The notes below the pieces were generated by a model, which worked only from the letters and a program-made list of their open reading frames with translations, was not told the DNA's origin and did no database searches. The position numbers and the translations under genes were made by a program. This document shows positions 9,271-40,602 of a stretch of DNA of 44,173 nucleotides, piece by piece. The stretch's first letter is position 1. Every line of letters starts with the position of its first letter. Origin of the DNA: a bacterium (lineage in GTDB: Bacteria; Verrucomicrobiota; Kiritimatiellia; RFP12; UBA1067); NCBI GenBank assembly GCA_963636335.1, contig CAVHJW010000001.1:1-44173 (forward strand), written 5' to 3'.

Positions 9271-9297
9271 GCTTTTTTATTTTCTTCTCGCAAATGT

Positions 9298-9308: not shown

Positions 9309-9317
9309 TTGCGGCAT

Positions 9318-14276: not shown

Positions 14277-14341
14277 GGCGGCGTCATCTGCGTCTGACAA
14301 ATTTGGTGGCAAATCTTTCAATTGAGGCGTTCGCGCGTATT

Positions 14342-14350
14342 TGATATACT
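14342..14350 (+). promoter_or_regulatory. candidate extended -10 promoter (TGATATACT) for the ppdK operon
   Basis: TGn + TATACT in the 132-nt intergenic region, about 60 nt upstream of ppdK. This one has a leader and an AAAGAG Shine-Dalgarno-like element. Confidence 0.4.
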
Positions 14351-14408
14351 GTAAGAAAAGGAACGAAAATAACGACGCGGTGCCTTTCGGCATCGGATAT
14401 GAAAGAGA

Positions 14409-21811: not shown

Positions 21812-22609
21812 ATGAACGGATATAACTGCATTGTCTGCATCAAGCAGGTGCCAGACACGAAACAGGTGACTGGCGCGGCGATGAAGGAGGATGGCACGAT
21901 TAATCGCGCCGCCCTACCCGCAATCTTCAACCCCGAGGACAAGAACGCCCTTGAAGCGGCGCTCTGGGTCAAAGAGACGTATGGTGGCACGGTGACCGTC
22001 ATCACGATGGGTCTCCCCGCCGCGAAGGCGATTTTGCGCGAGGCGTTGATGTGCGGCGCGGATCGCGCCGTCCTCGTCACGGATCGTAAGGCGGCCGGTT
22101 CGGATACGCTTGCGACGAGTTACATTCTCTCGCAGGCCGTGAAGAAATTTAATCCCGATCTCGTCTTTTGCGGTCGTCAGGCGATTGACGGCGACACGGC
22201 GCAGGTCGGCCCGCAGATTGGCGAGAAGCTCGATTGCGCGGTCGTCACGTACCTTGAGAAACTTGAAATGGAGGGGAATGTCGCCATCGCGACGCGCGAC
22301 ATTGGTACGGGCATTGAGACGTGCCGCGCCAAGCTCCCCGCGCTCTTCACCGTGACCGAGAAGTTCGGCGAGCTTCGCCCTTATCGGATGCGCCGTGTTA
22401 TGAAATATAAAAACGCCGAGCCCGAGATTCTCGACTGCGCGGCGATTGGTTGCGAGGACGCGCGTTGCGGCTTCGCCGGCTCGCCGACGAGCGTCAACAA
22501 GATTGAGTCCGTCGTCCTCGCGGGCGGCGCGTTCAAGGAGGTCGCTCCGACCGACGAAGGCCTTGCGGGTCTTGTCGCGGAACTCGTGGCAGACCACACA
22601 ATCGGCTAA
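21812..22609 (+). CDS. etfB: electron transfer flavoprotein beta subunit, bifurcating-type signature
   Basis: CIKQVPDT, NPEDKNALEAAL and CGRQAIDGDTAQVGPQIGEKL. The last is the DGDTAQVG form seen in anaerobe bifurcating Etf, unlike the DDDCNQTG form of mitochondrial-type Etf. Confidence 0.9.
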   Translation: MNGYNCIVCIKQVPDTKQVTGAAMKEDGTINRAALPAIFNPEDKNALEAALWVKETYGGTVTVITMGLPAAKAILREALMCGADRAVLVTDRKAAGSDTLATSYILSQAVKKFNPDLVFCGRQAIDGDTAQVGPQIGEKLDCAVVTYLEKLEMEGNVAIATRDIGTGIETCRAKLPALFTVTEKFGELRPYRMRRVMKYKNAEPEILDCAAIGCEDARCGFAGSPTSVNKIESVVLAGGAFKEVAPTDEGLAGLVAELVADHTIG

Positions 22610-22638
22610 AAACTCAAAACGTCTAACGGACAATCGCT

Positions 22639-23688
22639 ATGGAACGAAATAAAGGTGAAGTCTGGGTCTTCGCGGAGCAGGAAGAAGGGCGCCTCTCCGA
22701 CATCGTCTTCGAGTTGCTTGGCAAGGCGCGCGAGCTCGCCGCGACACTGAATGTCAAGGTCGGCGCGGTCTTGATGGGCGCGTTCGATGAGAAGGGGCTT
22801 TCGACTCTCGCGTCCTCGCTCACGGCAGGCGGCGCGGATCGGGTGCACGTCCTCAATGACGCGGCGCTCAAGGTCTTCCGCAACAAGGCCTACCGCCATT
22901 CGCTCGTGGAACTCGTGAAGGAATGTGCGCCGCAGATCGTGATCTTCGGCGCGACGCACATGGGTCGCGACCTCGCGCCCTCGGTTGCTTCCGCGCTTCG
23001 GTGCGGGCTGACGGCCGACTGCACGGATCTTCAGATTGGAAACTTTGAAGACAAGAAGACGAAGGAGACGTTTACGAACGTCCTCCATCAGATTCGTCCC
23101 GCGTTCGGCGGCAACATCATCGCGACAATCGTCAACGCGCGCCATTGGCCGCAGATGGCGACGGTGCGCGAGGGTGTCATGAAGGCGTTGGATGAGACGG
23201 AAAAGTCTTCGCGTGCTTCAATGACGCCTGATGTCGTTGTTCACGATGCGCATCTCGCGGGCGTTGAAATTCCCGTTGAGGTTGTTGAGATTCTTCGCAA
23301 GGTCTCATCCGTCAACTTGAAGGGTGCGCGCATCATCGTCGCAGGCGGTGCGGGCGTGGGTTCGAAGGAGAACTTCAAACTTCTCCATGAGCTCGCCACG
23401 CTTCTCGGTGGCGCGGTTGGCGGCTCACGTGCGGCGGTGGACTTGGGCTACTGCGAGCACGAGCGTCAGATTGGTCAGACGGGCGTTACGGTGCGCCCAG
23501 CGCTCTTCATCAGTTGCGGCATCTCGGGGGCCGTGCAGCACCTCGCGGGCATGCAAGACTCGGCGAAGATCATCGCGATCAACACGGACAAGGACGCGCC
23601 AATCTTTCAGGTGGCGCACTACGGCATTGTGGGCGATCTGAACGTCGTCCTCCCGAAGCTCATCAAGGCGATTCGCGCGAAAGGCTAA
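22639..23688 (+). CDS. etfA: electron transfer flavoprotein alpha subunit
   Basis: RCGLTADCT, the C-terminal FAD-binding SRAAVDLGY...QIGQTG and ISGAVQHLAGM...IIAINTD. Confidence 0.9.
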   Translation: MERNKGEVWVFAEQEEGRLSDIVFELLGKARELAATLNVKVGAVLMGAFDEKGLSTLASSLTAGGADRVHVLNDAALKVFRNKAYRHSLVELVKECAPQIVIFGATHMGRDLAPSVASALRCGLTADCTDLQIGNFEDKKTKETFTNVLHQIRPAFGGNIIATIVNARHWPQMATVREGVMKALDETEKSSRASMTPDVVVHDAHLAGVEIPVEVVEILRKVSSVNLKGARIIVAGGAGVGSKENFKLLHELATLLGGAVGGSRAAVDLGYCEHERQIGQTGVTVRPALFISCGISGAVQHLAGMQDSAKIIAINTDKDAPIFQVAHYGIVGDLNVVLPKLIKAIRAKG

Positions 23689-23692
23689 GACC

Positions 23693-25420
23693 ATGGGTAA
23701 CTTCTACACAGACAATCAGGACATCGCAGACACGCTCGACCTTCTGGACCTTTCAGAGGTCGCGACCCTCTTTGAGGAGGACTTCCGCTTCGCGAAGGAA
23801 TATGACTTCGCGCCGAAGAGCGCGGAGGAGGCGATTGATAACTACAAGCGCGCGATTTCGCTTTGTGGTGACATTATGGCCAACCGCATCGCGCCGCTCG
23901 CTGAAGAGACCGACCGCGTTGGCAACACGCTGAACGAGGACGGCTCGGTGACGCGCGCGCCTGGGATGAAGCTCGCGATTGACCTCTTTGGTCAGACGGG
24001 GTTGATGGGTGTGACCATTCCCTATTACCTCGGCGGCCTCAACATGCCGGGCACGGTGCTCACGGCTTGCAATGACATCGTCTCGCGCGGCGACGCCTCG
24101 CTCATGAACCTCTTTGGCCTTCAGGGCATCGCCGAGACGATCAATCAGTTCGCCGACGAGGAGATCAAGAAGGAATACGTGCCGCGCCTCGTCTCGGGCG
24201 AGTGGACGGGCGCGATGGTTCTCACGGAACCCGATGCCGGCTCGGATCTTCAGAGTGTGAAGACGACGGCCTATCAGGACGCGAACGGCAACTGGTTTGT
24301 GAACGGCGTCAAGCGCTTCATCACGAACGGCTGCGGCGAGGTGCTGCTCGTCCTCGCGCGCACCGAGCCCGAGTTCTCGGACGGGCGCGGGCTTAGCTGC
24401 TTGCTCGTTGAGAAGGGCCCCTGGGTGAAGGTGCGTCGGCTTGAGAACAAACTGGGTATCCATGGCTCGCCGACGTGCGAGATGGTCTTCACCGAAGCGC
24501 CCGCGAAGTTGATTGGCCTTCGTAAGCGCGGCCTCATCACCTACGTCATGTCGCTTATGAACGGCGCGCGTATGGGTATCGCCGCACAGGGCACGGGCAT
24601 TGGCGAGGCCGCCTTGCGCGCCGCGCGCGAATACGCCGCGAGCCGTGCGCAGTTCGGTGTGACGATTGACCACTTCCCCGCGTTGCGCGAAATCATGAGC
24701 ACGATGAGCGTTGAGTTGCAGGCCTCGCGCCTTCTCACCTACTACGCCTCCAAGAACGTCGATCTGGAGGCGGGGCTGACGCGCAAGTTCGCTGCGCTTA
24801 AGGGGACGAGCGAGGCGGCGGGGGTGCGCACACGCCTCAAGAAATACGCCGCGTTCAACAAGATGCTGACGCCGATGGCGAAGTACTACGGCTCGGAAAT
24901 GTCGATGCGCAACGCGCAGGGCGCGATTAGCGTCCTCGGCGGTTCGGGCTTCATGAAAGACTATCCGTGTGAGCGCTACTTGCGCGACAGCCGCATCGCG
25001 ACGATCTACGAGGGTACCTCGCAATTGCAAGTCGTTGCCGCCGTCGCGGGCGTGACGGGTGGGCTCGTGAAGGATGTCATCGACGACATTCTGGGCGAGG
25101 GCTGGCGTGCGAACCATCCGCGCATGTCCGCACTCCTTGACGATCTTGCCGCGACGATTGAAGGCATGAAGGCGCATGAAGATGCGAAGACCTACCATGA
25201 CCTTTCCGCGCGCAAACTCGTCGATGTCGGCATTTGGCTCGTCGTGGCCGCGCTTTTCGTGAAGGCCTCCGAGAAGAAGGCTTCCAAGAAGGCCGCGCTT
25301 GAGTTCTGGCTTCAGGTTGCGCTGCCGCGTGTCCGCGCGGAGTTGGAACTCGTCAAGTCGGGCTACATGGGGTCGACGGCGGACTTTGAGACGCTCGCGC
25401 CGATGCCGCAGGAAGTTTAA
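23693..25420 (+). CDS. long-form acyl-CoA dehydrogenase (about 575 aa, with N- and C-terminal extensions)
   Basis: ACAD core with GAMVLTEPDAGSD, FITNG and the catalytic Glu context IATIYEGTSQLQ. The roughly 130 aa C-terminal extension resembles the bacterial Acyl-CoA_dh_C type. Confidence 0.85.
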   Translation: MGNFYTDNQDIADTLDLLDLSEVATLFEEDFRFAKEYDFAPKSAEEAIDNYKRAISLCGDIMANRIAPLAEETDRVGNTLNEDGSVTRAPGMKLAIDLFGQTGLMGVTIPYYLGGLNMPGTVLTACNDIVSRGDASLMNLFGLQGIAETINQFADEEIKKEYVPRLVSGEWTGAMVLTEPDAGSDLQSVKTTAYQDANGNWFVNGVKRFITNGCGEVLLVLARTEPEFSDGRGLSCLLVEKGPWVKVRRLENKLGIHGSPTCEMVFTEAPAKLIGLRKRGLITYVMSLMNGARMGIAAQGTGIGEAALRAAREYAASRAQFGVTIDHFPALREIMSTMSVELQASRLLTYYASKNVDLEAGLTRKFAALKGTSEAAGVRTRLKKYAAFNKMLTPMAKYYGSEMSMRNAQGAISVLGGSGFMKDYPCERYLRDSRIATIYEGTSQLQVVAAVAGVTGGLVKDVIDDILGEGWRANHPRMSALLDDLAATIEGMKAHEDAKTYHDLSARKLVDVGIWLVVAALFVKASEKKASKKAALEFWLQVALPRVRAELELVKSGYMGSTADFETLAPMPQEV

Positions 25421-25433: not shown

Positions 25434-26264
25434 ATGGGTTGGTTTGAGCCAAAGAAGGAGAAGGTGGCCATCGCGCCGGCGAAGGCGCTCTGGGCGATTT
25501 GCCCGAAGTGCAAGAGCCACTTCGAGAAGTCGGTCTGGAAGAAAAATAATTCAATTTGCTCGAAGTGCAATTACCACGGGCGGCTTCCTGTCCGTGAGCG
25601 CATTGCGCAGATTGCAGACGCGGGTTCGTTCAAGGAGGTCTTCCGCGAGATCTCCTATTCGGATCACCTCGCGTTCCATGATGCGACGGGGGCCTACAAA
25701 GAGAAGGTTGAGGCCACGATTGCGAAGACGGGCGAGACCGAATCCATCGTGATGGGCGCGTGCACCATTGACAAGCATCCCGCGATGCTGGGCGTGATGG
25801 ACTTTGGCTTCATGGGTGGTTCGCTCGGCACGGGCACGGGTGAACGCATCGCCCGCGCGTGTGAGCAAGCGATTGCCGAGCGCCGTGCGCTCGTCATTTT
25901 CTCGGCCTCAGGCGGCGCGCGCATGCACGAGGGTATTCTTTCGCTTATGCAAATGGCGAAGACGTCGGCCGCGATCGCGCGGCTGAAAGAGGCGGGGCTT
26001 CCCTTTATCTCCGTTCTCACCGACCCGACGACGGGCGGTGTCTCGGCTTCGTTCGCGATGCTCGGTGACATCAACGTGACGGAGCCGAAGGCACTCATCG
26101 GTTTCGCGGGGCGTCGCGTCATTGAGAACACGATTCACCAGAAGCTTCCTGATGACTTCCAGACGGCCGAGTATCTCGAGAAGCACGGCTTCATTGACCG
26201 CGTCGTTGAGCGTAAAAATCTCAAGGCGTTCATCGCGAAGATGCTCGGCTATTTCGGCGTTTAA
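25434..26264 (+). CDS. accD: acetyl-CoA carboxylase carboxyltransferase beta subunit
   Basis: N-terminal Zn ribbon CPKCKSHFEKSVWKKNNSICSKCNYH, then GFMGGSLG and SASGGARMHEG. I chose the ATG at 25434 (GGGAG Shine-Dalgarno sequence) over the tracked 25299, which lies inside the ACAD gene. Confidence 0.9.
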   Translation: MGWFEPKKEKVAIAPAKALWAICPKCKSHFEKSVWKKNNSICSKCNYHGRLPVRERIAQIADAGSFKEVFREISYSDHLAFHDATGAYKEKVEATIAKTGETESIVMGACTIDKHPAMLGVMDFGFMGGSLGTGTGERIARACEQAIAERRALVIFSASGGARMHEGILSLMQMAKTSAAIARLKEAGLPFISVLTDPTTGGVSASFAMLGDINVTEPKALIGFAGRRVIENTIHQKLPDDFQTAEYLEKHGFIDRVVERKNLKAFIAKMLGYFGV

Positions 26265-26285
26265 AGACTTTCAAGGAGAAGAGAC

Positions 26286-27089
26286 ATGGCTGGCAAGACA
26301 ATGACGGCGTTTGATAAGGTGAAGATCGCGCGCGACCCGAAGCGCCCGCACCTGAAAGACTTCATCGCTGGGATGTGCGAGGATTTTGAGGAACTTCATG
26401 GCGACCGCCTCGTGAACGACGACCGCGGTCTCGTTGCGGGCTTCGCAACGATTGACGGCGAGAAGTGCCTCGTTCTCGGACACAACAAGGGCGCGACGGT
26501 TGAGGAGAATATGGCCTCCAACTTCGGCATGGCGAATCCCGATGGCTATCGCAAGGCGATGCGTCTTGCGAAGCTCGCCGAGCGCTTCGCGTTGCCGGTT
26601 GTCACCTTCGTTGACACGCCCGGTGCCTATCCAGGCAAGGAGGCGGAAGAGCGCGGTCAGGCCGAGGCGATTGCGAAGAGCCTTGAGTTCTTCTCGCGTC
26701 TCGCTACGCCAATCGTTGTTGTCGTGACGGGTGAAGGCGGTTCGGGCGGCGCGCTCGCGATCGCCGTCGGTGATCGTATCCTCATGATGGAGAACGCGGT
26801 CTATTCGGTGATTTCCCCCGAGGGATGCGCAGGCATTCTTTGGCGTGACGGCAAGAAGGCACCTGAGGCGGCTGAGGCGCTCAAGGTGACGGCCCCTGAT
26901 CTTCTTCAGTTGAAGGCGATTGATGAGATTGTCAAAGAGCCCGCGGGTGGCGCGCAAAAGAATCATAAGACGGCGATTGCGAACGTAAAGAAAGCCGTCT
27001 TGAAGGCGATTCGAGAATTGAAGAAGATTCCCGTTGAGCAACTTCTTGAGATGCGCTACGAAAAATTGCGCGGCTACGGCAAGAAGTGA
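26286..27089 (+). CDS. accA: acetyl-CoA carboxylase carboxyltransferase alpha subunit (short N-terminus)
   Basis: ARDPKRPHLKDF, VLGHNKG, FVDTPGAYPG and GEGGSGGALAI. Confidence 0.9.
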   Translation: MAGKTMTAFDKVKIARDPKRPHLKDFIAGMCEDFEELHGDRLVNDDRGLVAGFATIDGEKCLVLGHNKGATVEENMASNFGMANPDGYRKAMRLAKLAERFALPVVTFVDTPGAYPGKEAEERGQAEAIAKSLEFFSRLATPIVVVVTGEGGSGGALAIAVGDRILMMENAVYSVISPEGCAGILWRDGKKAPEAAEALKVTAPDLLQLKAIDEIVKEPAGGAQKNHKTAIANVKKAVLKAIRELKKIPVEQLLEMRYEKLRGYGKK

Positions 27090-28219
27090 GCGCCGTCTCC
27101 CTTTCGGACTTCGGTCTCGTCTCGGCGCTTGGTTGCGGGAAAGAAGAAAGCGAAAAGAATCTTTTTCTCGGCTCGCGCACGAACATGAAGGAAATCTCGC
27201 TCGCAGGAGGCGAGACTTCCTTTTTTGGCTTTGCCGCGCTTACTCCTGATGGGTTTGCGTCCGCGCCAACGCGTGTCGCCGCGCTTCTTGATGCGGCCGC
27301 GCGTCAACTTGATTGGAAGGCGCTCTACGCAGAGGTTGATCCGCGAAAAGTCGGCGCGGTTGTCGGGACGAGTAACTCAACGATGGAGGAGTTTACGGAT
27401 AAGCCCGACAAGATTGATATGGCTTATCCAGCCGAGCGCCTACGCGAAGTCTGGGGGGTGAAGGGCCCCGCCTACAGCGTTTCCACGGCGTGCTCGTCGA
27501 GTGCGAAAGCGTTCATGTCGGCGCGCCGTCTTCTTGAAGCGGGTGTTTGCGATGCCGTCATCGTGGGTGGCGCGGACGCAAAGACGCGCACCGTGATTGA
27601 AGGCTTTCATTCACTTGAGTCGCTTGCTGCGGGGTACACGAAGCCGCTTTCTGACGCGCGCGACGGCATCAATTTAGGCGAAGGCGCGGCCCTCTTTGTC
27701 ATGCGCCGCCTTGGCGAGAGTCGCGCCCCAGATGACATTCTTCTTCTGGGCGTGGGCGAGTCATCTGATGCCTATCACCTCACTGCGCCCGATCCCGAAG
27801 GGCGCGGCGCGGAGCGCGCGATGCGCCTCGCCCTTGAGGATGCGGGGCTTTCGCCCTCTCGCATTGACTATATCAACTTACATGGAACGGGGACGCGCTA
27901 TAATGACGCGATGGAATGTGCGGCCGTTCGGCGCGTTTTTGGTGACCAGATTCCTGTTTCCTCCACGAAGCCTTTAACGGGGCATTGCCTGGGCGCGGCG
28001 GGGGCTGTTGAAGCCGCGCTCTCGGCGCTTGCGCTTCAGCGAGGAAGGGGACTTCCGCCGCACGTCATTGATGCGCCCATTGATCTTAACCTCGCGCCAT
28101 TCCCAATTCCGAGCGTTGGTGACAAGACGCCTGTTCAGACGATTCTTTCAAATGCATTCGCCTTCGGTGGAAGTAACGCGAGCCTTATCCTCTCTCGCGC
28201 GCGAAAGGGGGACGCATGA
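27086..28219 (+). CDS. beta-ketoacyl synthase, aryl-polyene ApeO-like position (Cys-His-His intact)
   Basis: Active-site TACSSS (Cys codon 27491-27493), NLHGTGT and TGHCLGAAG. The GTG start overlaps the accA stop (GTGA). Confidence 0.8.
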   Translation: MSAVSLSDFGLVSALGCGKEESEKNLFLGSRTNMKEISLAGGETSFFGFAALTPDGFASAPTRVAALLDAAARQLDWKALYAEVDPRKVGAVVGTSNSTMEEFTDKPDKIDMAYPAERLREVWGVKGPAYSVSTACSSSAKAFMSARRLLEAGVCDAVIVGGADAKTRTVIEGFHSLESLAAGYTKPLSDARDGINLGEGAALFVMRRLGESRAPDDILLLGVGESSDAYHLTAPDPEGRGAERAMRLALEDAGLSPSRIDYINLHGTGTRYNDAMECAAVRRVFGDQIPVSSTKPLTGHCLGAAGAVEAALSALALQRGRGLPPHVIDAPIDLNLAPFPIPSVGDKTPVQTILSNAFAFGGSNASLILSRARKGDA

Positions 28220-28671
28220 CAGATCTTGAACGCCTCCTGCCGCAGAAGAGCCCGATGATCCTCTTGAGCGGCTACGACGAATCGGGTGATGACGTGATGC
28301 GCGTCACGGCGTATGTTGATATTGAGGCCTCGTCGCCGTTCTGTGAGGCCGAGGGTGTCCCAGCGTGTGTGGCGCTCGAATATATGGCGCAGGCGATGGC
28401 CCTTGTCGTCGGTCGCCTCCGCGCGGCGCGGGGGCTTTCTGCACAAATCGGCTTTGTTCTGGGCTCACGCAAATTTGAGACATTTATTCCTTTTTTTGCC
28501 CGTGGTCAGCGTTACACGGTGACCGCCTCATGCACCTACGAAGATGAGTCGTTTGGCAGTTTCGACTGCACGGTTTCGTCTTCCTCGGGTGTGCTCGCCG
28601 CGCGCGCGACGATGACGGCATACCAACCTTCGGGCGACATGACAGAGGAGAAACTTGAAGCCTATGAATAA
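28216..28671 (+). CDS. hotdog-fold 3-hydroxyacyl-ACP dehydratase-like protein (ApeP-like), with Gln at the expected His position
   Basis: 151 aa. N-terminal LLPQKSPMILL and central ACVALEYMAQAMAL resemble the FabZ / ApeP-type LLPHxxPMLLLD ... E..AQ layout. ATGA overlap with the upstream KS. Confidence 0.6.
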   Translation: MTDLERLLPQKSPMILLSGYDESGDDVMRVTAYVDIEASSPFCEAEGVPACVALEYMAQAMALVVGRLRAARGLSAQIGFVLGSRKFETFIPFFARGQRYTVTASCTYEDESFGSFDCTVSSSSGVLAARATMTAYQPSGDMTEEKLEAYE

Positions 28672-29341
28672 GACGGTCATCGTGACGGGGTCAAGCCGCG
28701 GCATCGGCAAGGCGATTGCCGAGACGCTACGCGCCGACGGTTATTCGGTTGTCACGCACTCGGTGAAGTCGGGCGGCACCGACCTCGTCTTCGATGTCGC
28801 CGACCGCGCGGCGGCGAAGGCGGCGTTGGACGCGTTCGTGGCCGAGCACGGCGCACCCTATGGCATCGTTCTTAACGCGGGTATTGCCGATGACAATGCG
28901 TTCCCCGCGATGGAGGATGCGCAGTGGGATCGCGTCCTTCGGACGGACCTTGACGGGTTTTACAATGTCCTAAAGCCTCTCGTCCTGCCTATGGTCCAAG
29001 CGCGACAGGGCGGGCGCATCGTCGTCATCTCGTCAATCTCGGGCGTGATTGGCAATCGCGGCCAGACGAACTATGCGGCCGCGAAGGCGGGGCTTATTGG
29101 CGCGGCGAAGTCGCTCGCGGTGGAGCTCGCGCGCCGTCGGATCACGGTCAACTGCATCGCGCCGGGCGTTGTTGAGACGGAGATGATTGAGGGCGTCTTT
29201 GCCGAGGAGGTCTTAAAGGCGATCCCGATGCGGCGCTTTGGTCGCCCCGAGGAGGTCGCGGGGGCGGTTCGTTATTTTCTTTCTGATGAGGCCGCTTATG
29301 TGACGCGGCAGGTCTTGAATGTGAACGGAGGGATGTTCTGA
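28664..29341 (+). CDS. 3-oxoacyl-ACP reductase (SDR, FabG/ApeQ-like)
   Basis: TGSSRGIG, NAG and the catalytic S...YAAAK (NYAAAKAG). An alternative TTG start lies at 28655. Confidence 0.85.
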   Translation: MNKTVIVTGSSRGIGKAIAETLRADGYSVVTHSVKSGGTDLVFDVADRAAAKAALDAFVAEHGAPYGIVLNAGIADDNAFPAMEDAQWDRVLRTDLDGFYNVLKPLVLPMVQARQGGRIVVISSISGVIGNRGQTNYAAAKAGLIGAAKSLAVELARRRITVNCIAPGVVETEMIEGVFAEEVLKAIPMRRFGRPEEVAGAVRYFLSDEAAYVTRQVLNVNGGMF

Positions 29342-29342
29342 A

Positions 29343-30566
29343 ATGAGGCGCGTCGTTGTCACGGGAATGGGAATTGTCAGTTCGCTCGGCCATGATGTCG
29401 CGACGGCCTTTGAGCACCTTCAGACAAAGAAAAATTGTGTTGAGGTCTCGGCGGATCTCATGACCTATAAGGGGCTTCAGACGCACCTCTGGGCACCCGC
29501 AAAATGGACGCGCCCCGCGCGCTATACACGTAAGATTGTGCGCACGATGAGCCCTGTTTCGGAAATGGCGCTCGATGCGACCGAGCAGGCCATCGCTCAG
29601 GCCGGGCTTACCGATTCGCCCATTCTCAAGGCGGGTCGTTGCGGCGTTGCTTACGGCTCGTGCTCGGGTGGCGTTGAGGCGAACGCCGACTTCTTCTCGA
29701 TTCTCATGAACCGCGAGGTGCGGAACGTGACGAGCTCAACCTACATCAAGATGATGCCGCAGACCTGCGCCGTGAATCTCTCCGTTCATTTCGGGACAAC
29801 GGGGCGACTTTTGCCGACGGGAACGGCGTGCACGTCGGGTTCGCTCGCAATCGGCGAGGCGTGCGAGGCCATTCGCTTCGGTCAGCAGGATGTCATGATC
29901 GCGGGCGGCGCGGAGGAGTTTTCCGTCACACAGGTCGCCGTCTTTGATACGCTCTTTGCAACGTCGCGTTGTAATGAAACACCCGAGGCCACGCCGCGTG
30001 CGTTTGATTCAAGCCGTGACGGGCTTGTGATTGGCGAGGGCGCGGCGACGCTCATCTTGGAGGAGCGTGACCATGCGCTTGCGCGTGGCGCGACCATTCT
30101 CGCGGAGGTTGCGGGTTTTGGTACAAACACCGATGGACGCCACGTCACCCAGCCGAATGCCGAGACGATGGCGGCGGCCTTGCGCCTTGCGCTTCAGGAT
30201 GCGGTCCTCTCGCCGGAGGCGATTGGCTACGTCAATGCGCACGGCACGGCGACCGATCGAGGCGATGTCGCAGAAGGGACGGCGATGGCGACCGTCTTTG
30301 GCGCCTCGCGCCCCGCCGTGAGCACGATTAAAAACTACACGGGGCATACGCTCGGCGCGTGTGGTGCGATTGAGGCCATCATGACGATTGAAATGATGCG
30401 CCACGGTCTTTTCGCCCCGAACCTCAACCTTGTCACGCCCGACCCCGCCTGCGGTGAGCACGACTTTATTATGGGCGATATGCGGCATCTTGAAACCGAG
30501 TATGTGATGAGCAACAATTTTGCCTTCGGTGGCATCAACACCTCGCTTGTTTTTCGTCGCACATGA
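29343..30566 (+). CDS. beta-ketoacyl-ACP synthase (FabF/FabB-like, ApeR-like position; Cys-His-His intact)
   Basis: GTACTSGS (Cys codon 29829-29831), NAHGTAT, TGHTLGACG and the C-terminal NNFAFGGINTSLVF. Confidence 0.85.
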   Translation: MRRVVVTGMGIVSSLGHDVATAFEHLQTKKNCVEVSADLMTYKGLQTHLWAPAKWTRPARYTRKIVRTMSPVSEMALDATEQAIAQAGLTDSPILKAGRCGVAYGSCSGGVEANADFFSILMNREVRNVTSSTYIKMMPQTCAVNLSVHFGTTGRLLPTGTACTSGSLAIGEACEAIRFGQQDVMIAGGAEEFSVTQVAVFDTLFATSRCNETPEATPRAFDSSRDGLVIGEGAATLILEERDHALARGATILAEVAGFGTNTDGRHVTQPNAETMAAALRLALQDAVLSPEAIGYVNAHGTATDRGDVAEGTAMATVFGASRPAVSTIKNYTGHTLGACGAIEAIMTIEMMRHGLFAPNLNLVTPDPACGEHDFIMGDMRHLETEYVMSNNFAFGGINTSLVFRRT

Positions 30567-31027
30567 AAAAAGCTCGTCTACTCGGCATGCGGCGCGTTCA
30601 GTCGCTCAACGAGGCGGATGTCTCGTTCGTGCCGCCGCTTTTGCGTCGTCGCCTCTCGCCTCTGCAACGGATTTTCTTCTTTCTCGCGCACTTTGACGAG
30701 ACGCTGCCGACACCGAAGCGCGTTGTCTTCGCAAGTCGCGACGGCGAAGATACGCTCACGCGCCGCACGGTTGAAGATTTTCATACGGATGGCACCGCCT
30801 CACCGCATCGCTTCAGCGCGTCTGTCTATAACGCCGCGCCTGGGCTTTGGAGCGTCTTTACGAAGAACATCGCGCCTTACACGTCTGTTGCCGCCGGGCG
30901 TGAAACCGTTCGCGTCGGCCTTTTGGAGGCGCTTCTCCCCGCCGAGACGCCGACCCTGTTTGTCTACGCTGAAGAAACGGATGGCGGGCACGGCTTCTCT
31001 TGTCTCTATGGCTTCGACGGCGATTAG
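30563..31027 (+). CDS. chain-length-factor-like protein (Ketoacyl-synt_2 / ApeC-like, no active-site Cys)
   Basis: 154 aa. LLRRRLSPLQR, VFASRDGE, SPHRFSASVYNAAPG and LFVYAEE follow the pattern of the short KS N-terminal-domain proteins that partner with KS in aryl-polyene-type clusters. ATGA overlap with the upstream KS. Confidence 0.65.
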   Translation: MKKARLLGMRRVQSLNEADVSFVPPLLRRRLSPLQRIFFFLAHFDETLPTPKRVVFASRDGEDTLTRRTVEDFHTDGTASPHRFSASVYNAAPGLWSVFTKNIAPYTSVAAGRETVRVGLLEALLPAETPTLFVYAEETDGGHGFSCLYGFDGD

Positions 31028-31736
31028 GCTTCTGCGCGGCTCTCTTGCGGTCCTCTTCGGCTTTGCCTTCGCCGTGGGCGCGATTCTTCTTTCGCCGCTC
31101 ATGCTCGTTTTCTCGCGCCCCGAAGGCGCCCAGCCGCTCGTTCGCGCCATTTGGCGACCGCTCGTGTGGCTTTTTGAGAAAACGCGCCTCATTCGCGTCG
31201 TGCGCGGCGATGTTGAAAGCCCACACGGCGCGATCATCGTCGCGAATCACCCCTCGCTCATTGATGTTGTCCTTTTTGTCGCGCTTTTTCCAAAGACGCT
31301 TTATGTTGCGAAGTCGCCTCTTCGCTCAAGTTTCGCCCTTGGGCGCATCGTCCGCGCGACCTCGCTTTTTGATGACGCGCGTCTTCTTGATGAGGCGCGG
31401 CCCTATCTTGAGCACGGTTGGAATATCCTTATTTTTCCCGAGGGGACGCGCTCGCCAAAGGAAGGGCTTCATTCCTTCCGGCGCGGCGCGGCGCAACTCG
31501 CCCTCCGCACGGGCGCGCCGCTTGTTGCGATGGGTCTTTGTCTCTCGCGCCGTATTCTTGCGAAGGGACAGCCGCTCTTTGACATGGGCGAAAAGACGGT
31601 CGTCTATTCGTTTCACGCGCGCGCGCCGTTTCGCGCCGAGGTGAGACCTGGAGAGAGCGCGCACGCGGCGGCGGTACGTGTCACGCGTGATCTTGAAGAG
31701 GCGATCGCCCTGAATCTTCAGAAGGACAGTGAGTAA
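31008..31736 (+). CDS. lysophospholipid / 1-acyl-sn-glycerol-3-phosphate acyltransferase family (LPLAT, ApeD-like position)
   Basis: HX4D motif NHPSLID (31248-31265), FPEGTRS, and an N-terminal TM segment. I chose the ATG at 31008. The tracked 30618 start is Arg-rich shadow over the CLF gene. Confidence 0.75.
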   Translation: MASTAIRLLRGSLAVLFGFAFAVGAILLSPLMLVFSRPEGAQPLVRAIWRPLVWLFEKTRLIRVVRGDVESPHGAIIVANHPSLIDVVLFVALFPKTLYVAKSPLRSSFALGRIVRATSLFDDARLLDEARPYLEHGWNILIFPEGTRSPKEGLHSFRRGAAQLALRTGAPLVAMGLCLSRRILAKGQPLFDMGEKTVVYSFHARAPFRAEVRPGESAHAAAVRVTRDLEEAIALNLQKDSE

Positions 31737-31771
31737 CCGAGTAATATTCGATAATGAAGGGGGAATCAAAA

Positions 31772-32536
31772 ATGGAACAGGGCTCTCGAGGCGAGTATGA
31801 TTTTAGGGTGCGCACATACGAGTGCGGACCCGATGGCGTTGCGACATTACCGACCCTTTGCAATTATTTGCAGGAAGCAGCCAGTATGAATGCGGAGGCG
31901 TTGGCTTTCTCGCGCACAAACTTTATGGCGGAGGGTGAGAATATCTCGTGGGTGTTGACGCGCTTGCGCGTTTGCATGACGCGCTATCCGAAATGGGAGG
32001 AGACTGTGCATGTTGTCACGTGGCCGAGCGGTGGGCGGCGCGTGGCTGCGACGCGCGAGTTTAGGCTCTGCGACGACACGGGCGCGCAAATCGGTGTGGC
32101 GACGAGCGAGTGGATGCTCATTGATCTTGCGACGCGCCGCATCGTGCCTATCCCCGAAACGGTTCTTGCCCTTGCGCAGGGATCTACGCGCGTGCTCGAA
32201 GACGCGCCCTTTACAAAATTGCGCTGGACCTGCACGGAGACGACATCTGACGCGCAGACGTTTCGCGCACGCCGCAGCGACATTGACCTCAACGGCCATG
32301 TCAACAACGTTCATTATGTTTCATGGCTTCTTGAGACGGTGCCCGCAGGCTTTTGCACGGATTTTGAAATCGTCTATCGCTCCGAGACGCGGGTCGGCGA
32401 AATCGTGCGTGCGGAGAGCGTGGAGGTTGAGCCTCACGTCTTCGTGCATCGCCTTTCCGATTCCACCGGCCACGATCACGTTCTCGCTTGTACGCGCTTC
32501 GCGAGCGAGCCGACACGTTTATCGGATCGTTCATAG
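31772..32536 (+). CDS. acyl-ACP thioesterase (FatA/FatB-type double hotdog)
   Basis: YDFRVRTYECGPDGVATLPTLCNYLQEAA and DIDLNGHVNNVHY are typical of the Acyl-ACP_TE family. The ATG at 31772 follows an AGGGGGA Shine-Dalgarno sequence, and the ATG at 31754 is an alternative start. Confidence 0.75.
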   Translation: MEQGSRGEYDFRVRTYECGPDGVATLPTLCNYLQEAASMNAEALAFSRTNFMAEGENISWVLTRLRVCMTRYPKWEETVHVVTWPSGGRRVAATREFRLCDDTGAQIGVATSEWMLIDLATRRIVPIPETVLALAQGSTRVLEDAPFTKLRWTCTETTSDAQTFRARRSDIDLNGHVNNVHYVSWLLETVPAGFCTDFEIVYRSETRVGEIVRAESVEVEPHVFVHRLSDSTGHDHVLACTRFASEPTRLSDRS

Positions 32537-33774: not shown

Positions 33775-34599
33775 ATGAAAAGGCTTCTAACGATTCAAGA
33801 TATTTCCTGCGTGGGGCAGTGCTCCACGACGGTCGCGCTCCCGCTCGTGAGCGCTTGCGGTGTTGAGTGCGCCATTCTGCCGCCCGCCATCCTCTCAAAC
33901 CACACGGGCGGCTTTAAAACGTGGAGTTTCGTTGACTTGACGAGCGAGCTTAAAAAAGTTGAGGCGAAGTGGATTGAGCAGGATATTCGCTTTGATGCGT
34001 TTTACACGGGCTACGTTTGTGAGAGCCATATTGACCCAATCCTTTCAATTATGAAGACGTGCGCCCGTGACGGCGCGTTGCGCTTCGTTGATCCCGCGAT
34101 GGCCGATAATGGCACGCTCTACGCGGGTTTCGCGCCCGACTTTCCATCAAAGATGGCGCGCCTGTGCGCGGGCGCGGATTTCCTTCTTCCAAATCTCACC
34201 GAAGCCGCGCTTCTCGTGGGCGATGAGCCTGGGCGTTATCTGAAGAGTCTGAATGAGGCGGATGTCGCCTCGCTCACGAAACGTCTTCATGCGCTCGGTG
34301 CGAAGACAGTCGTCCTGACGGGCGTCAGCTTTGATGTCGGTCTTCTCGGCACGGCGGTCTCGGACGGAAAGACGATCACCTACGACTTCAACCCTCGTAA
34401 CCCCCGCAGCGCACACGGCACGGGCGATGTCTTCGCCTCCGTCTTTGCGGGCGCGGTTCTGCGCGGCAAGACGGCTGTCGAGGCGGCATCGCTTGCGGCC
34501 GATATCGTCTGCGCGGCCATTGAGGCGACCGATCCGGAACATTGGTACGGCGTTTCGTTTGAGCGCGTCATTCCGCTTCTCACAAAGGCGCTCGCCTAA
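33775..34599 (+). CDS. pdxK: pyridoxal/pyridoxamine kinase (ribokinase superfamily)
   Basis: LTIQDISCVGQCS, FDAFYTGY, FVDPAMADNG and the C-terminal GTGDVFAS anion-hole motif. An alternative GTG start lies at 33757. Confidence 0.7.
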   Translation: MKRLLTIQDISCVGQCSTTVALPLVSACGVECAILPPAILSNHTGGFKTWSFVDLTSELKKVEAKWIEQDIRFDAFYTGYVCESHIDPILSIMKTCARDGALRFVDPAMADNGTLYAGFAPDFPSKMARLCAGADFLLPNLTEAALLVGDEPGRYLKSLNEADVASLTKRLHALGAKTVVLTGVSFDVGLLGTAVSDGKTITYDFNPRNPRSAHGTGDVFASVFAGAVLRGKTAVEAASLAADIVCAAIEATDPEHWYGVSFERVIPLLTKALA

Positions 34600-35384
34600 T
34601 GTGGCGTGCGCGCCTCGCTCTCGCACTTCTCGCGGCCGTCATCATCACGGCACCATCTTTGCGTGCCGACACGTGGCGAAACCTTGACGACGAGAATCAT
34701 ATTGCGGGGCGCATGTGTCGCGCGGGCTATCTTACGGGGAAGGTCATCCTTCTTTCGCGTGCGGTGGATGACGCGCAACGGTTGGAGGAAGTCTGGTCGA
34801 GTTTCAAGACGAAGTCGTTTGTCCTTTTGGGCGCGTATGCCTCTGCGCCTCAAGGCGTGACATTCCCCGTCTACGCGGCGGCAACGCGAGACGGCGCGCC
34901 CCTATCGCCACTTGTCCTCTTTGACGCAACGGGGCGCATCGTCTATTCGGGCGCGGACGTGAACGCGGCGACGGAGGCGCTCGTCACGGCGCTTACGGAT
35001 TTCGCCGCGCCGCCGACGGTGGTGGCCTTTCGCGCGCTTCTCAATTTTGAACTTGAGAATCTGCCCGCGCACGCAACGATTCGGTATGCGGCCTTTCAGA
35101 AGGCGCACCCCGAGGAGGCACGCGATTACGCGGCGCGGCTTGACGCGCTTGCGAAGACACCCCATTTGAAGGCCCTTGTCGCGCTTGTGCGCCTCGCTGA
35201 GACGGTGAAGGATGCGCGCACCTTGGATGCGAAGAAGGACGCGCACGTTCGATCGCGCGTTCTGAAGCGTATTGATGAGGCAGAAAGGAAGTACGCATTT
35301 TTGAAGGTGGCGGAAGATCCGCGTGTTGCACAAGAGGCAAAGAACGCTCTCGCAGATCTCGCGTGGGCGAAGGCCACGCTCTGA
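34599..35384 (+). CDS. secreted hypothetical protein (signal peptide; possible thioredoxin-like fold without CxxC, plus a helical C-terminal domain)
   Basis: MWRARLALALLAAVIITAPSLRA|D is signal-like. The start overlaps the pdxK stop (TAATG). I recognise no family motif. Confidence 0.45.
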   Translation: MWRARLALALLAAVIITAPSLRADTWRNLDDENHIAGRMCRAGYLTGKVILLSRAVDDAQRLEEVWSSFKTKSFVLLGAYASAPQGVTFPVYAAATRDGAPLSPLVLFDATGRIVYSGADVNAATEALVTALTDFAAPPTVVAFRALLNFELENLPAHATIRYAAFQKAHPEEARDYAARLDALAKTPHLKALVALVRLAETVKDARTLDAKKDAHVRSRVLKRIDEAERKYAFLKVAEDPRVAQEAKNALADLAWAKATL

Positions 35385-35419: not shown

Positions 35420-37125
35420 ATGGAGACATCATTCGAGACCGTTGTTGAGATTTTGGAACGCAACGCGCGCGAGTGGCCGAACGACGTCGCGCTCGTTGAG
35501 ATCAATCCGCAAGAGCTGGAAGCGCACCATACGACATGGCGCGAATATTCGCTCATTGAGAGTTCTTCCATTGAGGCGTTTCGGAGCGAGATGACATGGC
35601 GCGCATTCGATGAGAAGGCGAATCGCTTTGCGAATCTCCTTTTGAGCCGCGGCTTCAAGAAGGGCGAGAAGGTCGCGATTCTCCTCATGAATGGCTTGGA
35701 GTGGTTGCCGATTTACTTCGGCATTTTGAAGGCGGGCTGTATGGCTGTGCCGCTCAACTTCCGCTACACGGCCGACGAGATCAAGTATTGCCTCGAGCTT
35801 TCGGATGCGCAAGCCCTCGTCTTTGGGCCTGAGTTTATTGGTCGCGTTGAGCAGATTATTGACCTCGTGCCGGCCGTTAAGACGCGTTTCTATGTGGGCG
35901 ATGACTGCCCCTCGTTCGCTGATTCCTACCAGACGCTTCTTTCCTATTGCTCGTCTAAGGCACCCGCGATTCCGATGACGACGGATGACGAGGCGGCTAT
36001 CTACTTTTCGTCGGGGACTACGGGCTTCCCGAAAGCGATCGTCCTTCAGCACCACTGCCTTGTCCATGCCTGCAAGGTTGAGCAAGATCACCACGGCCAG
36101 ACGAAGGACGACACGTTCCTCTGCATTCCGCCACTCTATCATACGGGCGCGAAGATGCACTGGTTTGGCTCGTTGCTCGTGGGTGGCCGCGCCGTTCTCC
36201 TAAAGGGTGTCAAGCCCGAGTGGATTTTGCGTGCGGTCTCGGAGGAACGTTGCACGATTGTTTGGCTGCTCGTTCCTTGGGCGCAAGACATCTTGGACGC
36301 CATTGAGCGCGGTGATGTGAACCTCGCAGACTTCCGCCTTGCGCAGTGGCGGCTTATGCATATCGGTGCGCAGCCTGTTCCGCCCGCGCTCATCAAGAGG
36401 TGGAAGACGGTCTTTCCTCATCACGACTACGACACGAACTACGGGCTTTCGGAGTCGACGGGTCCGGGAGCCGTTCACCTGGGCGTTGAGAACATTGACC
36501 ACGTTGGCGCGATTGGCGTTCCCGGCTACGGTTGGCAGACAAAGATTGTGGGCTCAGACGGCATCACGCCCGTCGAGGACGGCAAGGTGGGTGAACTTGC
36601 GCTCAAAGGCCCAGGCGTCATGAAGGAATATTATAAGAACCCGCAGGCGACGGCCGAAATTATGAAGGAGCCCGGGTGGCTCTTGACGGGCGACATGGCG
36701 GAAAAGCGCGATGGTTTCATTTACCTCGTTGATCGCGCGAAAGATGTCATCATCTCGGGTGGCGAGAATCTTTACCCCGTTCAGATTGAAGACTTCATTC
36801 GCGCACATCCCGCGGTGAAGGATGTTGCGGTCATCGGCCTACCTGACAAGCGCATCCCGCGGTGAAGGATGTTGCGGTCATCGGCCTACCTGACAAGCGA
36901 CTCGGTGAAATCGCGACGGCGATTGTCTCGGTGAAGGATGGCGCGACGCTCGACGAGGCGCAGTTGCAGACGTTCTGTTTGGGGCTGCCGCGCTACAAGA
37001 GACCGCGCAAAATCATCTTCGCAGAGGTGCCGCGCAACCCGACGGGCAAAATTGAGAAGCCGCGCCTCCGCAAAATGTATGGCGCGGAGACCCTCGTCGC
37101 CCAGCAGAACGGCATTGAGGTCTAA
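35420..37125 (+). pseudogene. AMP-dependent acyl-CoA/aryl-CoA ligase interrupted by a 47-bp tandem duplication (frameshift)
   Basis: Motifs YFSSGTTGFPKAI (A3), NYGLSES (A5), LTGDM (A7) and VDRAKDVIISGGENLYP (A8) lie in ORF 35420-36865. The remaining C-terminus, including PRNPTGKIEK (A10 Lys), lies in ORF 36862-37125 in another frame. Deleting one 47-bp copy yields a continuous 552-codon ORF reading ...GLPDKRLGEIATAIV.... Confidence 0.8.
36805..36898 (+). repeat. perfect 47-bp direct tandem duplication (2 copies)
   Basis: 36805-36851 and 36852-36898 are both CATCCCGCGGTGAAGGATGTTGCGGTCATCGGCCTACCTGACAAGCG, verified base by base. Confidence 0.95.
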
Positions 37126-37150
37126 CGAATCAGGGCAACATTCGGCCGAA

Positions 37151-37161
37151 TATGGTATAAT
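37151..37161 (+). promoter_or_regulatory. extended -10 promoter TATGGTATAAT
   Basis: Exact 11-mer. The ATG at 37172 lies 10 nt downstream with no Shine-Dalgarno sequence. Confidence 0.6.
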
Positions 37162-37171
37162 ACGATACAAT

Positions 37172-39271
37172 ATGGACAAGCAGAATCTCTATCTCGGTAT
37201 CGACATTGGCTCGACGACGTTCAAGGCTGTTCTTCTCGCGGGCGATGGCACTGTCCTTCGCACCGTCTACAAGCGGACGCAGCCCGTTGAGGCGGGCAAG
37301 GTCGCGTGCACGGGGCACTGTCATGCGTGTGGCGCGTGCAGCGGCGGGTCGGTGAAGCGTCTCGCGCTTGAGTTCCTGAAGGTTGCGGGCATCGCATCTT
37401 TCTCGGATCTCTCGTCTTTTGTCGTGACGGGTAGCCAGATTGTTGAGGACACAAAGAAATTCTTGCCTTTCGACTTTCAGGTGAGTGAGGTGACCGCGCA
37501 CGTTGCGGGCGCAAAGTTCCTTCATCCCGATGTTGATGCCATTATTGACTGCGGCGGTCAGGACTCAAAGTGCATGGTCTACAATCCGCCGATGAACCTC
37601 TGGACGAGCATGATGAGCGGCGTCTGCGCGGCGGGAACGGGCAGTTTCCTCGACTCGGTGGCGCAGAAGCTCGGCGTCCGAATTGAGGATGTCGCCGACC
37701 GTGTCAACTACGACTCAAAGACTGAATTCAGTTCCGTCTGCGCCGTCCTCTCGGCGACGTCGATCAACAAGTTTAAGAACCGCGTGCCGCTCGGTGATCT
37801 CTTGGCCGGCGCGTGCAAGGCGCAGGCGCGCACGATTCTTAACTCGGTTGGTCAGCTCCTCTTGAATGCTCCAGGTCGCAAGATTCTCTTTCAGGGCGGC
37901 GTTGCGTTCAACAAGGCCGTTGCTTACTTCCTCGGCAAACTGACGGGCAGCGAGATTATTATTCCGCAGTATCACGAGGTGATGGGCGCACTCGGCGCGG
38001 CCGTCATTGCGCGCCAACTTCATGACCTCAAGGTGTCGGGTCATCTGAATCTTGAGAAGGTTGACTACGAGCCGACGCGCGGGAAGTCCGTTCTTCTGCG
38101 CATCAAGTCGACGAAGCACGACTTCTTCTCGAAGGACGAAACGAAGCCGCTCGTTTGGCGCAATCTCTTCTTCCCGACTGAAATCCTGAATGCGATGGAC
38201 TGCCGCGTGCGCACGCTTGAGACCTACGCCGCGCTCTTTGGTCGCCGCGCCGACAAGGTGAAGGAGGCTCTCGGGCGCGCCGCGCAGAAGGGCTTCGACG
38301 GGCAGACGTGTTCGTTTTTGCGTATGCTTGAAGGTATGGATCTCGAGAAGCCTGACTTCATCGTCTCAACCGTTCAGCCGTGTCAGCAGGCCGAGCGTGT
38401 TTTCGCCGATCTCGCGCGCGAATACAAAATTGAGGATCGTCTCTACTCGTTGCAGACGCCGATCAACGCACACTCGCGCAACGCCGTGGAGGTGATGGCC
38501 GACGGGCTTGCCGAGTCTGTCTTTGAGATGGAGAAGGCCTTTGGGCGCAAGATGGATCCAGGTCGACTTGAAGAGGCGTGCGTCCTTTCAAACGAGGCCG
38601 CCGCGCTTGCGAAGAAGTGTCAGGAATTGCGCTTCACATCCCCGCCGCTCGTGCGCGGGAGCGAGGCGATTTACAACGCTATCGTCTTCTCGCAGCTCTG
38701 GGGGCGCCAAGATCTCGTGGATATCCAGAAGGCCTACTACGAGGAACTTCTGATGAAGAAGGAGTGGGCCGAGAAGCGCTACAAAATGGGTGACACGCAC
38801 CGCCTCCTCTGGCTTCACCTGCCACCGTTCTACGATACGCGCCACCTTGACTTTATTGAGACGACGTGCAATGCGCCGATCGTCTTCGAAGAGACGAACT
38901 TCGTCGGCTGGGAGCCGCTTGACCCGAAAGATCCCTACCGCTCGCTCGCGAAGAAGCTCCTTCAGTCAGGCTTTCTCGACCCCGCGCTGCGCGTTGAGTA
39001 CGTCAAGCGCGCCATTCCAGCGGGTCAGTTCAATGGCGTCATCCTCTACACACACGGCTTTGGTCGCTGCTCGCTTGCCGACCGCGCGCTCTCCAAGCAT
39101 CTGCGCGAGGAGCTTGATGCGATCCATGTGCCGCTTCTCACGCTTGAGGGCGACTGCATGGATGCGTCGATCGACCCGTGCTCAACAACGACGAAGATTG
39201 CTTCGTTCGCGGAGGCGCTGAACCTAAACCGTTACGGGAATATCTTCGGCAAACTCAACGAGAAGAAATGA
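37172..39271 (+). CDS. fusion of a BcrAD/BadFG-type (HgdC-like) ATPase activase with a 2-hydroxyacyl-CoA dehydratase (HGD-D) domain
   Basis: The N-terminal half has LGIDIGSTTFKAV, DCGGQDSKC, VCAAGTGSFLD and SSVCAVLSATS, collinear with HgdC including its two cluster Cys. The C-terminal half has QTCSFLR, QPCQQAE, TTCNAPIV, GFGRCS and LEGDCMD, which is HGD-D-like. I chose the start at 37172. The tracked 36938 start is an Arg-rich overlap with the ligase gene. Confidence 0.8.
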   Translation: MDKQNLYLGIDIGSTTFKAVLLAGDGTVLRTVYKRTQPVEAGKVACTGHCHACGACSGGSVKRLALEFLKVAGIASFSDLSSFVVTGSQIVEDTKKFLPFDFQVSEVTAHVAGAKFLHPDVDAIIDCGGQDSKCMVYNPPMNLWTSMMSGVCAAGTGSFLDSVAQKLGVRIEDVADRVNYDSKTEFSSVCAVLSATSINKFKNRVPLGDLLAGACKAQARTILNSVGQLLLNAPGRKILFQGGVAFNKAVAYFLGKLTGSEIIIPQYHEVMGALGAAVIARQLHDLKVSGHLNLEKVDYEPTRGKSVLLRIKSTKHDFFSKDETKPLVWRNLFFPTEILNAMDCRVRTLETYAALFGRRADKVKEALGRAAQKGFDGQTCSFLRMLEGMDLEKPDFIVSTVQPCQQAERVFADLAREYKIEDRLYSLQTPINAHSRNAVEVMADGLAESVFEMEKAFGRKMDPGRLEEACVLSNEAAALAKKCQELRFTSPPLVRGSEAIYNAIVFSQLWGRQDLVDIQKAYYEELLMKKEWAEKRYKMGDTHRLLWLHLPPFYDTRHLDFIETTCNAPIVFEETNFVGWEPLDPKDPYRSLAKKLLQSGFLDPALRVEYVKRAIPAGQFNGVILYTHGFGRCSLADRALSKHLREELDAIHVPLLTLEGDCMDASIDPCSTTTKIASFAEALNLNRYGNIFGKLNEKK

Positions 39272-40602
39272 CCGTCCTCCTCGCCATCGCGCTTCTTCTG
39301 GCGGATGTCCCTTTGACAGACCGCGAGGTTTGGAACGAGGGTGTTTCGTATTATGAGGCGGGTGACGCGACGAACGCCCTGCGTGTTCTACGACCCCTGA
39401 TGCTCTCAAAGACGCACGGCGCGCGCGCGGCCGAGGTCGTTGCGAAGCTCGAATATGAGAAGGGGAATCAGGAGGCTGCGGCCGAGGCGGCGCAGATTGC
39501 GCTCCGCGCCGCGCCGTCTGATGCGAAGGCGAATCGCAACTTCACGCGCGCCACAAGCGGTCTTCCTGCGCGTCGCGAGAAAGAGCATATTGACGCGGTG
39601 CTGAAGGCTGCCGAGGGTCAAGATCCAGGCGCGTTGCTTTTGACGGCGACGAAGAATGCGCGCCGTCTCTTCGCTGAGTCGGCGACATATCGCACGAACG
39701 AAGCGTCTCGCGCCGTTGCGCGTGCCGACCGCCTTGCGGCTGACGCGGCGACGCTTGCCGACGCTTGGATTCCTGTCCGTCAGGCCATCACGCAGTCCGT
39801 CACAAATGAAGAGCAGGCTGCAACGATTCTGATGCAAATTGAACAGGCTGAGTCAAAGACGAAGGACGCCGCACGAGCTCTGGGAGATCTTGATGAGTCG
39901 GCGTATGCCATGCTTTCTGATGTTGAGCACGACTTGACGCGCTTTCTAAAACTTGCGATCTTGCCGCCGCCCGCGATGGACGAAGATCTCGTGGCCCAGT
40001 CAAATGCTTGGCTTGATGTTGAGAAGGTGAACGGTCGCAACTGGCAACAGGACGCGCTTGATTTCACGCGCGCGTTTCGTGCGAAGTTCCCCGCGTGGGC
40101 GAAGGCATACGAGCAACAAGCGCAGTCTGACACCAATAAGCCGCCTTTCACGGCGGAGGATCAGGCCAAAGTCTCGGCCCTCTCAACGGAACTTGAGAAG
40201 ATTCAGATTTCTTGCGTTGAGAAGGTTGTTGCCGCCGATCAGGAGAAAGCCTTGCGTCTTATTGATGAGATTCGTGCGCTTCTTCCGAAGAATCCGAATG
40301 GGGGTGGCGGGTCAAATCAACAGCCGAACGAGGGCGCCCAGAATCCGAATCAGTCGCCGCAGAATAACGATTCGCAGAATCAGCCTCAGCCAAACGAGAC
40401 GGACGAAAAACAGACAGAAGACCCCAACGAGCAGAAGGGTGAGGAGGATGAAAAGGAGGCGGGCGAGACGGCCGAAGAGCCACCCGACGAGCAGGTCGAA
40501 GACGTTCTTAAAAAGGCGCAAGAGCGCAATGATGAACACGAGGCGGACAAGAAGGCGCGTATGCGCAAGGCGCCGCTTCCGCCGAACGAACGGGACTGGT
40601 AG
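39268..40602 (+). CDS. TPR-like protein with acidic/Gln-Asn-Pro low-complexity C-terminal region (BatC-like tail ending in RDW)
   Basis: N-terminal hydrophobic segment MTVLLAIALLLA, TPR-like helices, low-complexity NPNGGGGSNQQPNEGAQNPNQSPQNNDSQNQPQPNE...EEDEKE, and the ending KKAQERNDEHEADKKARMRKAPLPPNERDW. ATGA overlap with the upstream gene. The BatC similarity is from memory of tail architecture only. Confidence 0.45.
   Translation: MTVLLAIALLLADVPLTDREVWNEGVSYYEAGDATNALRVLRPLMLSKTHGARAAEVVAKLEYEKGNQEAAAEAAQIALRAAPSDAKANRNFTRATSGLPARREKEHIDAVLKAAEGQDPGALLLTATKNARRLFAESATYRTNEASRAVARADRLAADAATLADAWIPVRQAITQSVTNEEQAATILMQIEQAESKTKDAARALGDLDESAYAMLSDVEHDLTRFLKLAILPPPAMDEDLVAQSNAWLDVEKVNGRNWQQDALDFTRAFRAKFPAWAKAYEQQAQSDTNKPPFTAEDQAKVSALSTELEKIQISCVEKVVAADQEKALRLIDEIRALLPKNPNGGGGSNQQPNEGAQNPNQSPQNNDSQNQPQPNETDEKQTEDPNEQKGEEDEKEAGETAEEPPDEQVEDVLKKAQERNDEHEADKKARMRKAPLPPNERDW

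Follow-up and report, generated by a model that had tools for sequence, protein, structure and literature searches.

The locus described here raises the question whether a gene coding for an AMP-dependent ligase in an uncultured gut bacterium has really been broken by a perfect tandem duplication, and, if so, whether this duplication is a fresh mutation, a reversible switch, the origin of a split enzyme or a product of sequence assembly. The window, i.e. the whole stretch of DNA that was analysed, comprises 44,173 nucleotides of contig CAVHJW010000001.1 (assembly GCA_963636335.1) from a member of the Kiritimatiellia. All coordinates given below refer to it and all features of the ligase locus lie on its forward strand.

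Structure of the tandem duplication

Inspection of the 44-kb window with TRF yields a perfect two-copy tandem repeat at positions 36806-36899 with a period of 47 nt, 2.0 copies, 100% match and a score of 188. Exact string comparison resolves it into two identical blocks and extends the repeat no further on either side. Copy 1 (36806-36852; CATCCCGCGGTGAAGGATGTTGCGGTCATCGGCCTACCTGACAAGCG) provides the codons for H463-R478, and copy 2 (36853-36899), which is 100% identical to copy 1, is missing in all relatives according to the sibling alignments. At the junction of the copies the window reads ...CTGACAAGCG|CATCCCGCGG..., where the single-copy counterpart has ...CTGACAAGCG|ACTCGGTG...; the same junction is also given as ...CCTACCTGACAAGCG|CATCCCGCGGTGAAG... 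and the single-copy form ...CTGACAAGCG|ACTCGGTGAAATC.... A preliminary description of this DNA had already recognized a perfect 47-bp tandem duplication, which both methods find in the sequence, but had placed its copies at 36805-36851 and 36852-36898. This is off by one, since the first bases of those blocks differ (A versus G) and the correct start is one base to the right.

Chance is excluded as the origin of a tandem perfect 47-mer, which is not expected in 44 kb. The second-longest two-copy array detected by TRF in the window has a unit of only 18 nt, and for periods of 20-400 nt neither the window nor the first 18 related loci contain a further perfect tandem repeat. The window contains no Ns.

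Identity of the interrupted gene

After removal of one copy the gene consists of 552 codons and encodes a full-length enzyme, as had been proposed. The restored protein shows the two-domain architecture of the ANL superfamily with an AMP-binding domain (PF00501) and an AMP-binding_C domain (PF13193), both of which are also present in its single-copy homologues including P0001 and the identical-sequence cluster of P0123. Its core motifs are found in the typical order with A3 (SSGTTG) at residue 197, A5 (YGxSE) at 341, A7 (TGD) at 423, A8 at 438 and A10 (PxxxGK) at 525-531. The closest solved structure is FadD13 from M. tuberculosis (3R44, E 7e-71, aligned residues 57-540). Domains, motifs and this alignment agree with the AMP-dependent ligase named in the preliminary description, and judged from them the gene is a FadD-like ANL (AMP-dependent) acyl-CoA ligase. 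A substrate and an exact subfamily are not assigned, because the best NCBIfam match, the long-chain-fatty-acid--CoA ligase family PRK06187, scores 385.8 bits and thus remains below its curated cutoff of 476.

The ligase protein is 68-75% identical among gut MAGs of Kiritimatiellia, Victivallales/Lentisphaeria and many Clostridia (window compared with loci L040-L098), the latter comprising Acutalibacteraceae, Lachnospiraceae and Ruminococcus. This unusually high identity across phyla suggests that the gene may have spread horizontally among gut anaerobes.

Effect on the reading frame

The length of the duplication is not a multiple of three and translation confirms the resulting frameshift in the ligase. 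The open reading frame that begins with ATG at 35420 runs to 36865 and ends after ...GLPDKRIPR with a premature TGA at 36863-36865, inside copy 2, exactly where the preliminary description had seen it. Its 481 residues correspond to native residues 1-478 followed by an aberrant IPR and the stop. This truncated frame keeps the N-terminal AMP-binding domain together with A3 (197), A5 (341), A7 TGD (423) and the A8 hinge DRAKD (438), and its product (P0007) is accordingly recognized by PF00501 only. Exact look-up finds no other record of the 481-aa product, which is the sole member of its 90% cluster.

The remaining, native C-terminal part is encoded in a different frame that runs up to position 37125, also in agreement with the earlier reading. 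The remnant is an ORF of 87 aa (36862-37125; P0125) that equals native residues 466-552 and carries the A9-like LPRYKRP (507) and A10 PTGKIEK (525). Its start codon had been taken for an ATG; it is a GTG at 36862, which overlaps the TGA in the tetranucleotide GTGA. The frameshift after residue 478 removes the last 74 native residues including A9/A10 and K528. The codon of this A10 lysine, located at 37048-37050, is out of frame with the N-terminal part, and in the FadD13 (3R44) alignment the residue sits in the conserved PRNPTGKI block. The A10 lysine is needed for adenylation. The frame breaks about 25 residues inside the C-terminal subdomain, past the A8 hinge (DRAKD 438-442), and hence upstream of the A10 lysine as had been claimed; the wording that it lies just before this lysine is loose, as 50 codons separate it from K528.

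Copy number and selection among relatives

Comparison with orthologues had been suggested as a check and was carried out here. Exact-protein look-ups supplied 12 conspecific contigs, namely ten NCBI MAG contigs (GCA_9635-9636 series) and two Logan contigs (SRR13434646, SRR13434647), with 98.9-99.5% nucleotide identity to the window. All 12 contain one copy of the 47-bp unit and, apart from these 47 bp, they align with the window around the ligase without gaps; elsewhere in the 44 kb, gaps against sibling contigs measure only 2-3 nt. A single copy is likewise found in about 100 loci of other species. A 30-mer spanning the junction has no match in the GTDB species representatives or in the JGI metagenomes. 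The restored protein has thousands of full-length homologues, and among the best 120 of them the window product is the only truncated one; those with a name belong to MAGs of Kiritimatiellae/Kiritimatiellia, mostly from the ruminant gut.

The collapsed window gene encodes exactly P0123, a protein present in GCA_963660195.1 and GCA_963629165.1, and differs from P0001 in a single residue (D223N). Among the 13 conspecific gene copies 27 of 1659 sites are variable, 24 of them synonymous and 3 non-synonymous, and the sister species has retained 98.7% protein identity at a nucleotide identity of about 86%. No second lesion is seen in the window copy. This predominance of synonymous changes, the closeness of the sister protein and the identity with a sibling protein show clearly that the gene is functional and under strong purifying selection in the species and that the lesion is young. 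An old, fixed pseudogene, which had been one branch of the preliminary description, is refuted by the single-copy relatives: the lesion is not shared by them, and the gene reveals neither additional degeneration nor relaxed selection.

Genomic neighbourhood

Downstream of the ligase (37172-40602) the window encodes a 699-aa protein in which a BcrAD_BadFG (TIGR00241) acyl-CoA dehydratase activase is fused with an HGD-D-type dehydratase or double-cubane-reductase-like domain, and a 444-aa protein without family match. A conserved operon of the ligase and the BcrAD_BadFG/HGD-D fusion was considered and rejected, since the two genes are neighbours in this species and its sister alone; all 64 other loci whose downstream sequence is long enough lack this arrangement. 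Upstream there is a lipid or polyketide-like cluster (25434-32536) with two carboxyltransferase subunits, two ketosynthases and a Ketoacyl-synt_2 partner, an ApeP-like dehydratase, a ketoreductase, an acyltransferase and an acyl-ACP thioesterase. Ahead of this cluster lie genes for ETF alpha/beta and for an acyl-CoA dehydrogenase (21812-25420).

Within the gene of a 261-aa hypothetical protein (34599-35384) nine substitutions are concentrated in 25 bp (35144-35168), five of them found only in the window and four common to the window and one sibling contig (L007) only; this patch has the appearance of a short tract of recombination or gene conversion. In the window, as in most siblings, the alpha-2-macroglobulin-like gene (9219-14276) encodes 1685 aa; in three sibling loci (L104, L112, L113) it has another start region and encodes 1660 aa. 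In the Na/Pi cotransporter gene (7488-9191) a sequence of about 23 nt is repeated exactly and in direct orientation at a distance of 399 nt (7764-8186), which probably reflects the internal duplication of this transporter family.

Haplotype and assembly context of the breakpoint

Directly 5' of copy 1, at position 36805, lies a polymorphic synonymous site (GCA/GCG, Ala465). The SNP tables give A for the window and for one single-copy contig (L099, GCA_963592415.1), and G for the 11 other conspecific contigs. As the single-copy L099 already carries A, this allele predates the duplication. That an edge of the duplication coincides with a polymorphic site has a chance of about 3% (27 of 1659 sites variable, two flanks). 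Slippage normally uses microhomology. The A36805 haplotype has none at the breakpoint, whereas the common G haplotype presents GCG before the unit as well as GCG at the unit end.

Three rare alleles (36676, 36769 and 36805) are found within the 177 bp to the left of the junction, and the 2.3 kb to its right contain none. All of them are synonymous third-position changes and therefore real variants, not contig-end errors. The window matches L099 from 36677 to 37542, and conspecific contigs show hardly any variation over the 650 bp that follow the junction on its right, so that a haplotype switch at this point, as in a chimeric join, would leave little trace. In about 85 loci of other species a search for the source of the rare alleles in a neighbouring lineage remained without an informative match, and the single-copy 24-mer with the A allele has no match in the JGI metagenomes. 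The gene also contains a natural 12-nt direct repeat (CGGTGAAGGATG, encoding VKD both times) at 36813-36824 and 36929-36940, whose two occurrences are 69 nt apart in the single-copy gene. Slippage on this repeat was rejected as origin of the lesion, because it would yield a 69-bp and not a 47-bp event.

Traces of the assembly process are visible in a sibling assembly (GCA_963618255.1), in which this region is divided between two contigs: exactly 55 bp, at window positions 14311-14365, are shared by the end of contig 33 (L114) with the start of contig 2 (L121). Such an overlap implies an assembler of the SPAdes-type de Bruijn class with k = 55 for this sibling. If the window was produced by the same pipeline, the 47-bp repeat would be shorter than k and would create no repeated k-mers, and the path through the graph would therefore need read-backed 56-mers containing A36805 and the junction; on this basis we infer that the junction was present in the source reads. 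A recurrent graph branch is implied at 14311-14365, and in one sibling contig (L112) a gene of an rve-family integrase lies just downstream of it. Both window ends (positions 1 and 44173) coincide with contig ends in sibling assemblies.

Origin of the duplication

On balance, a single spontaneous and very recent 47-bp tandem duplication, either fixed or polymorphic in the sample, is slightly more likely than not to be the cause of the broken ligase gene. It would have arisen on the T36769/A36805 haplotype of this uncultured gut species of the Kiritimatiellia and would be carried by all or part of the strain population in the one sample behind the contig. The reading frame of the FadD-like ANL acyl-CoA ligase would shift after residue 478, leaving a product whose mobile C-terminal subdomain lacks its final 74 residues. 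Since the A10 lysine is lost with these residues, the truncated protein is expected to be inactive and the gene to be non-functional. On this reading the duplication is neither conserved nor programmed nor regulatory. An error of assembly or polishing is the serious alternative, of somewhat lower probability. It supposes that pieces overlapping by 47 bp were abutted untrimmed, or that a local re-assembler or polisher inserted a repeat of k-mer length, with strain variation at 36805 as the trigger and a real gene that is single-copy and intact. Such an error would agree with a duplication private to one of 13 conspecific contigs, with a junction missing from the GTDB representatives and JGI metagenomes and with a ligase gene otherwise free of decay. 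The boundary of a de Bruijn artefact is expected at a branch, i.e. a variant site, and copy 1 begins indeed one base past the polymorphic 36805; the clustering of rare alleles on the left side of the junction only and the breakpoints without microhomology on the window haplotype point in the same direction. The length of 47 equals the default K of the local de Bruijn re-assembly in Pilon (PMC4237348), but there is no sign that Pilon or a scaffolder was used. The overlap in the sibling assembly speaks against the error, because an untrimmed graph overlap should measure 55 and not 47 bp, these parameters being those of the sibling assembly and not of the window's own. Moreover, no standard SPAdes step was identified that would make the junction, the window has neither Ns nor – like the first 18 related loci – a second perfect tandem repeat of 20-400 nt, and the rare alleles beside the junction are real synonymous variants. 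A mis-overlap by the SPAdes gap closer is unlikely, as a comparison by eye at 47-nt spacing gives 4 mismatches in the best 10-nt window.

Tandem duplications collapse at high frequency. It had therefore been proposed that the strain toggles its ligase by gain and loss of the 47-bp copy, and a collapse would indeed restore the gene exactly. In phase-variable loci the repeat copy number varies among strains, whereas here all 12 other conspecific contigs are single-copy, and the duplication recurs neither in the 10 sister-species contigs nor in the 80 loci of other species. Together with a junction that is absent from two public collections, a truncated product that is unique among the best 120 homologues and the lack of any pre-existing repeat array or microhomology that could make the duplication recur, this renders a reversible switch very improbable. 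To a genuine reversible within-host switch of the ligase or, alternatively, a junction formed by illegitimate inter-strain recombination at the GCG microhomology we likewise concede a very small chance. Still less credible is a split enzyme, in which the fragments of 481 and 87 aa, the latter reinitiated at GTGA, would reassemble into an active ligase. The overlap of GTG (36862) with TGA (36863-36865) is a layout that can allow termination-reinitiation, and the duplicated beta-strand segment is present in both fragments. However, by eye the 20 nt that precede the GTG reveal nothing purine-rich that resembles a Shine-Dalgarno sequence, the GTGA arises incidentally from the native codons GCG GTG AAG, no relative possesses a split gene, and the break is situated about 25 residues past the A8 hinge within the C-terminal subdomain. 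The preliminary description had doubted a split enzyme for this position of the break, and we share this view.

Significance and comparison with known systems

The main use of this analysis is in quality control and as a caveat for annotation. Pangenome studies and metabolic reconstructions should not count the ligase as lost or pseudogenised in the species, because all other genomes of this species have it intact and constrained. A real duplication would add one more case in which an uncultured gut bacterium has freshly acquired a loss-of-function mutation within its host; an artefact would offer a concrete MAG example of a duplication error at a strain-variable site.

In favour of a real mutation, 1.3 Mb of related MAG loci contain further perfect two-copy tandem duplications, of 21-32 bp; regardless of how they arise, such duplications are no rarity in MAGs. 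In the Ruminococcus MAG RUG12176 (L074) a perfect 32-bp tandem duplication at 8103-8166 splits an apparent gene of about 530 aa into two ORFs (7840-8169 and 8142-9428) that are in frame after removal of one copy. A frameshifting tandem duplication is thus seen in another MAG contig as well, one that was produced by a different pipeline.

With FadD13 and other FadD-type fatty-acyl-CoA synthetases the restored protein shares motifs A3, A5, A7, A8 and A10, including VAVIGLPD..GEI and PRNPTGKI, but in contrast with members of PRK06187 it stays under the family cutoff. Duplications that result from untrimmed overlaps or local re-assembly resemble the present one in being perfect and two-copy, in their k-mer-like length, in their position right after a variant site and in their restriction to one assembly; they differ from it in that the graph overlap of the sibling is 55 and not 47 bp and the window contig is devoid of gap characters. 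The known class of short tandem-duplication frameshifts in bacterial genes is likewise characterized by an exact head-to-tail copy of some tens of bases that is not divisible by 3, a premature stop, restriction to one lineage, an otherwise undamaged gene and a possible collapse to the wild type. Its members usually arise between short direct repeats, whereas the A36805 haplotype has no microhomology at the breakpoint. Taken as a whole, the duplication, whether lesion or assembly error, is an ordinary and one-off event in a ligase gene that is conserved and of housekeeping type; it is of an already known kind and no new element.
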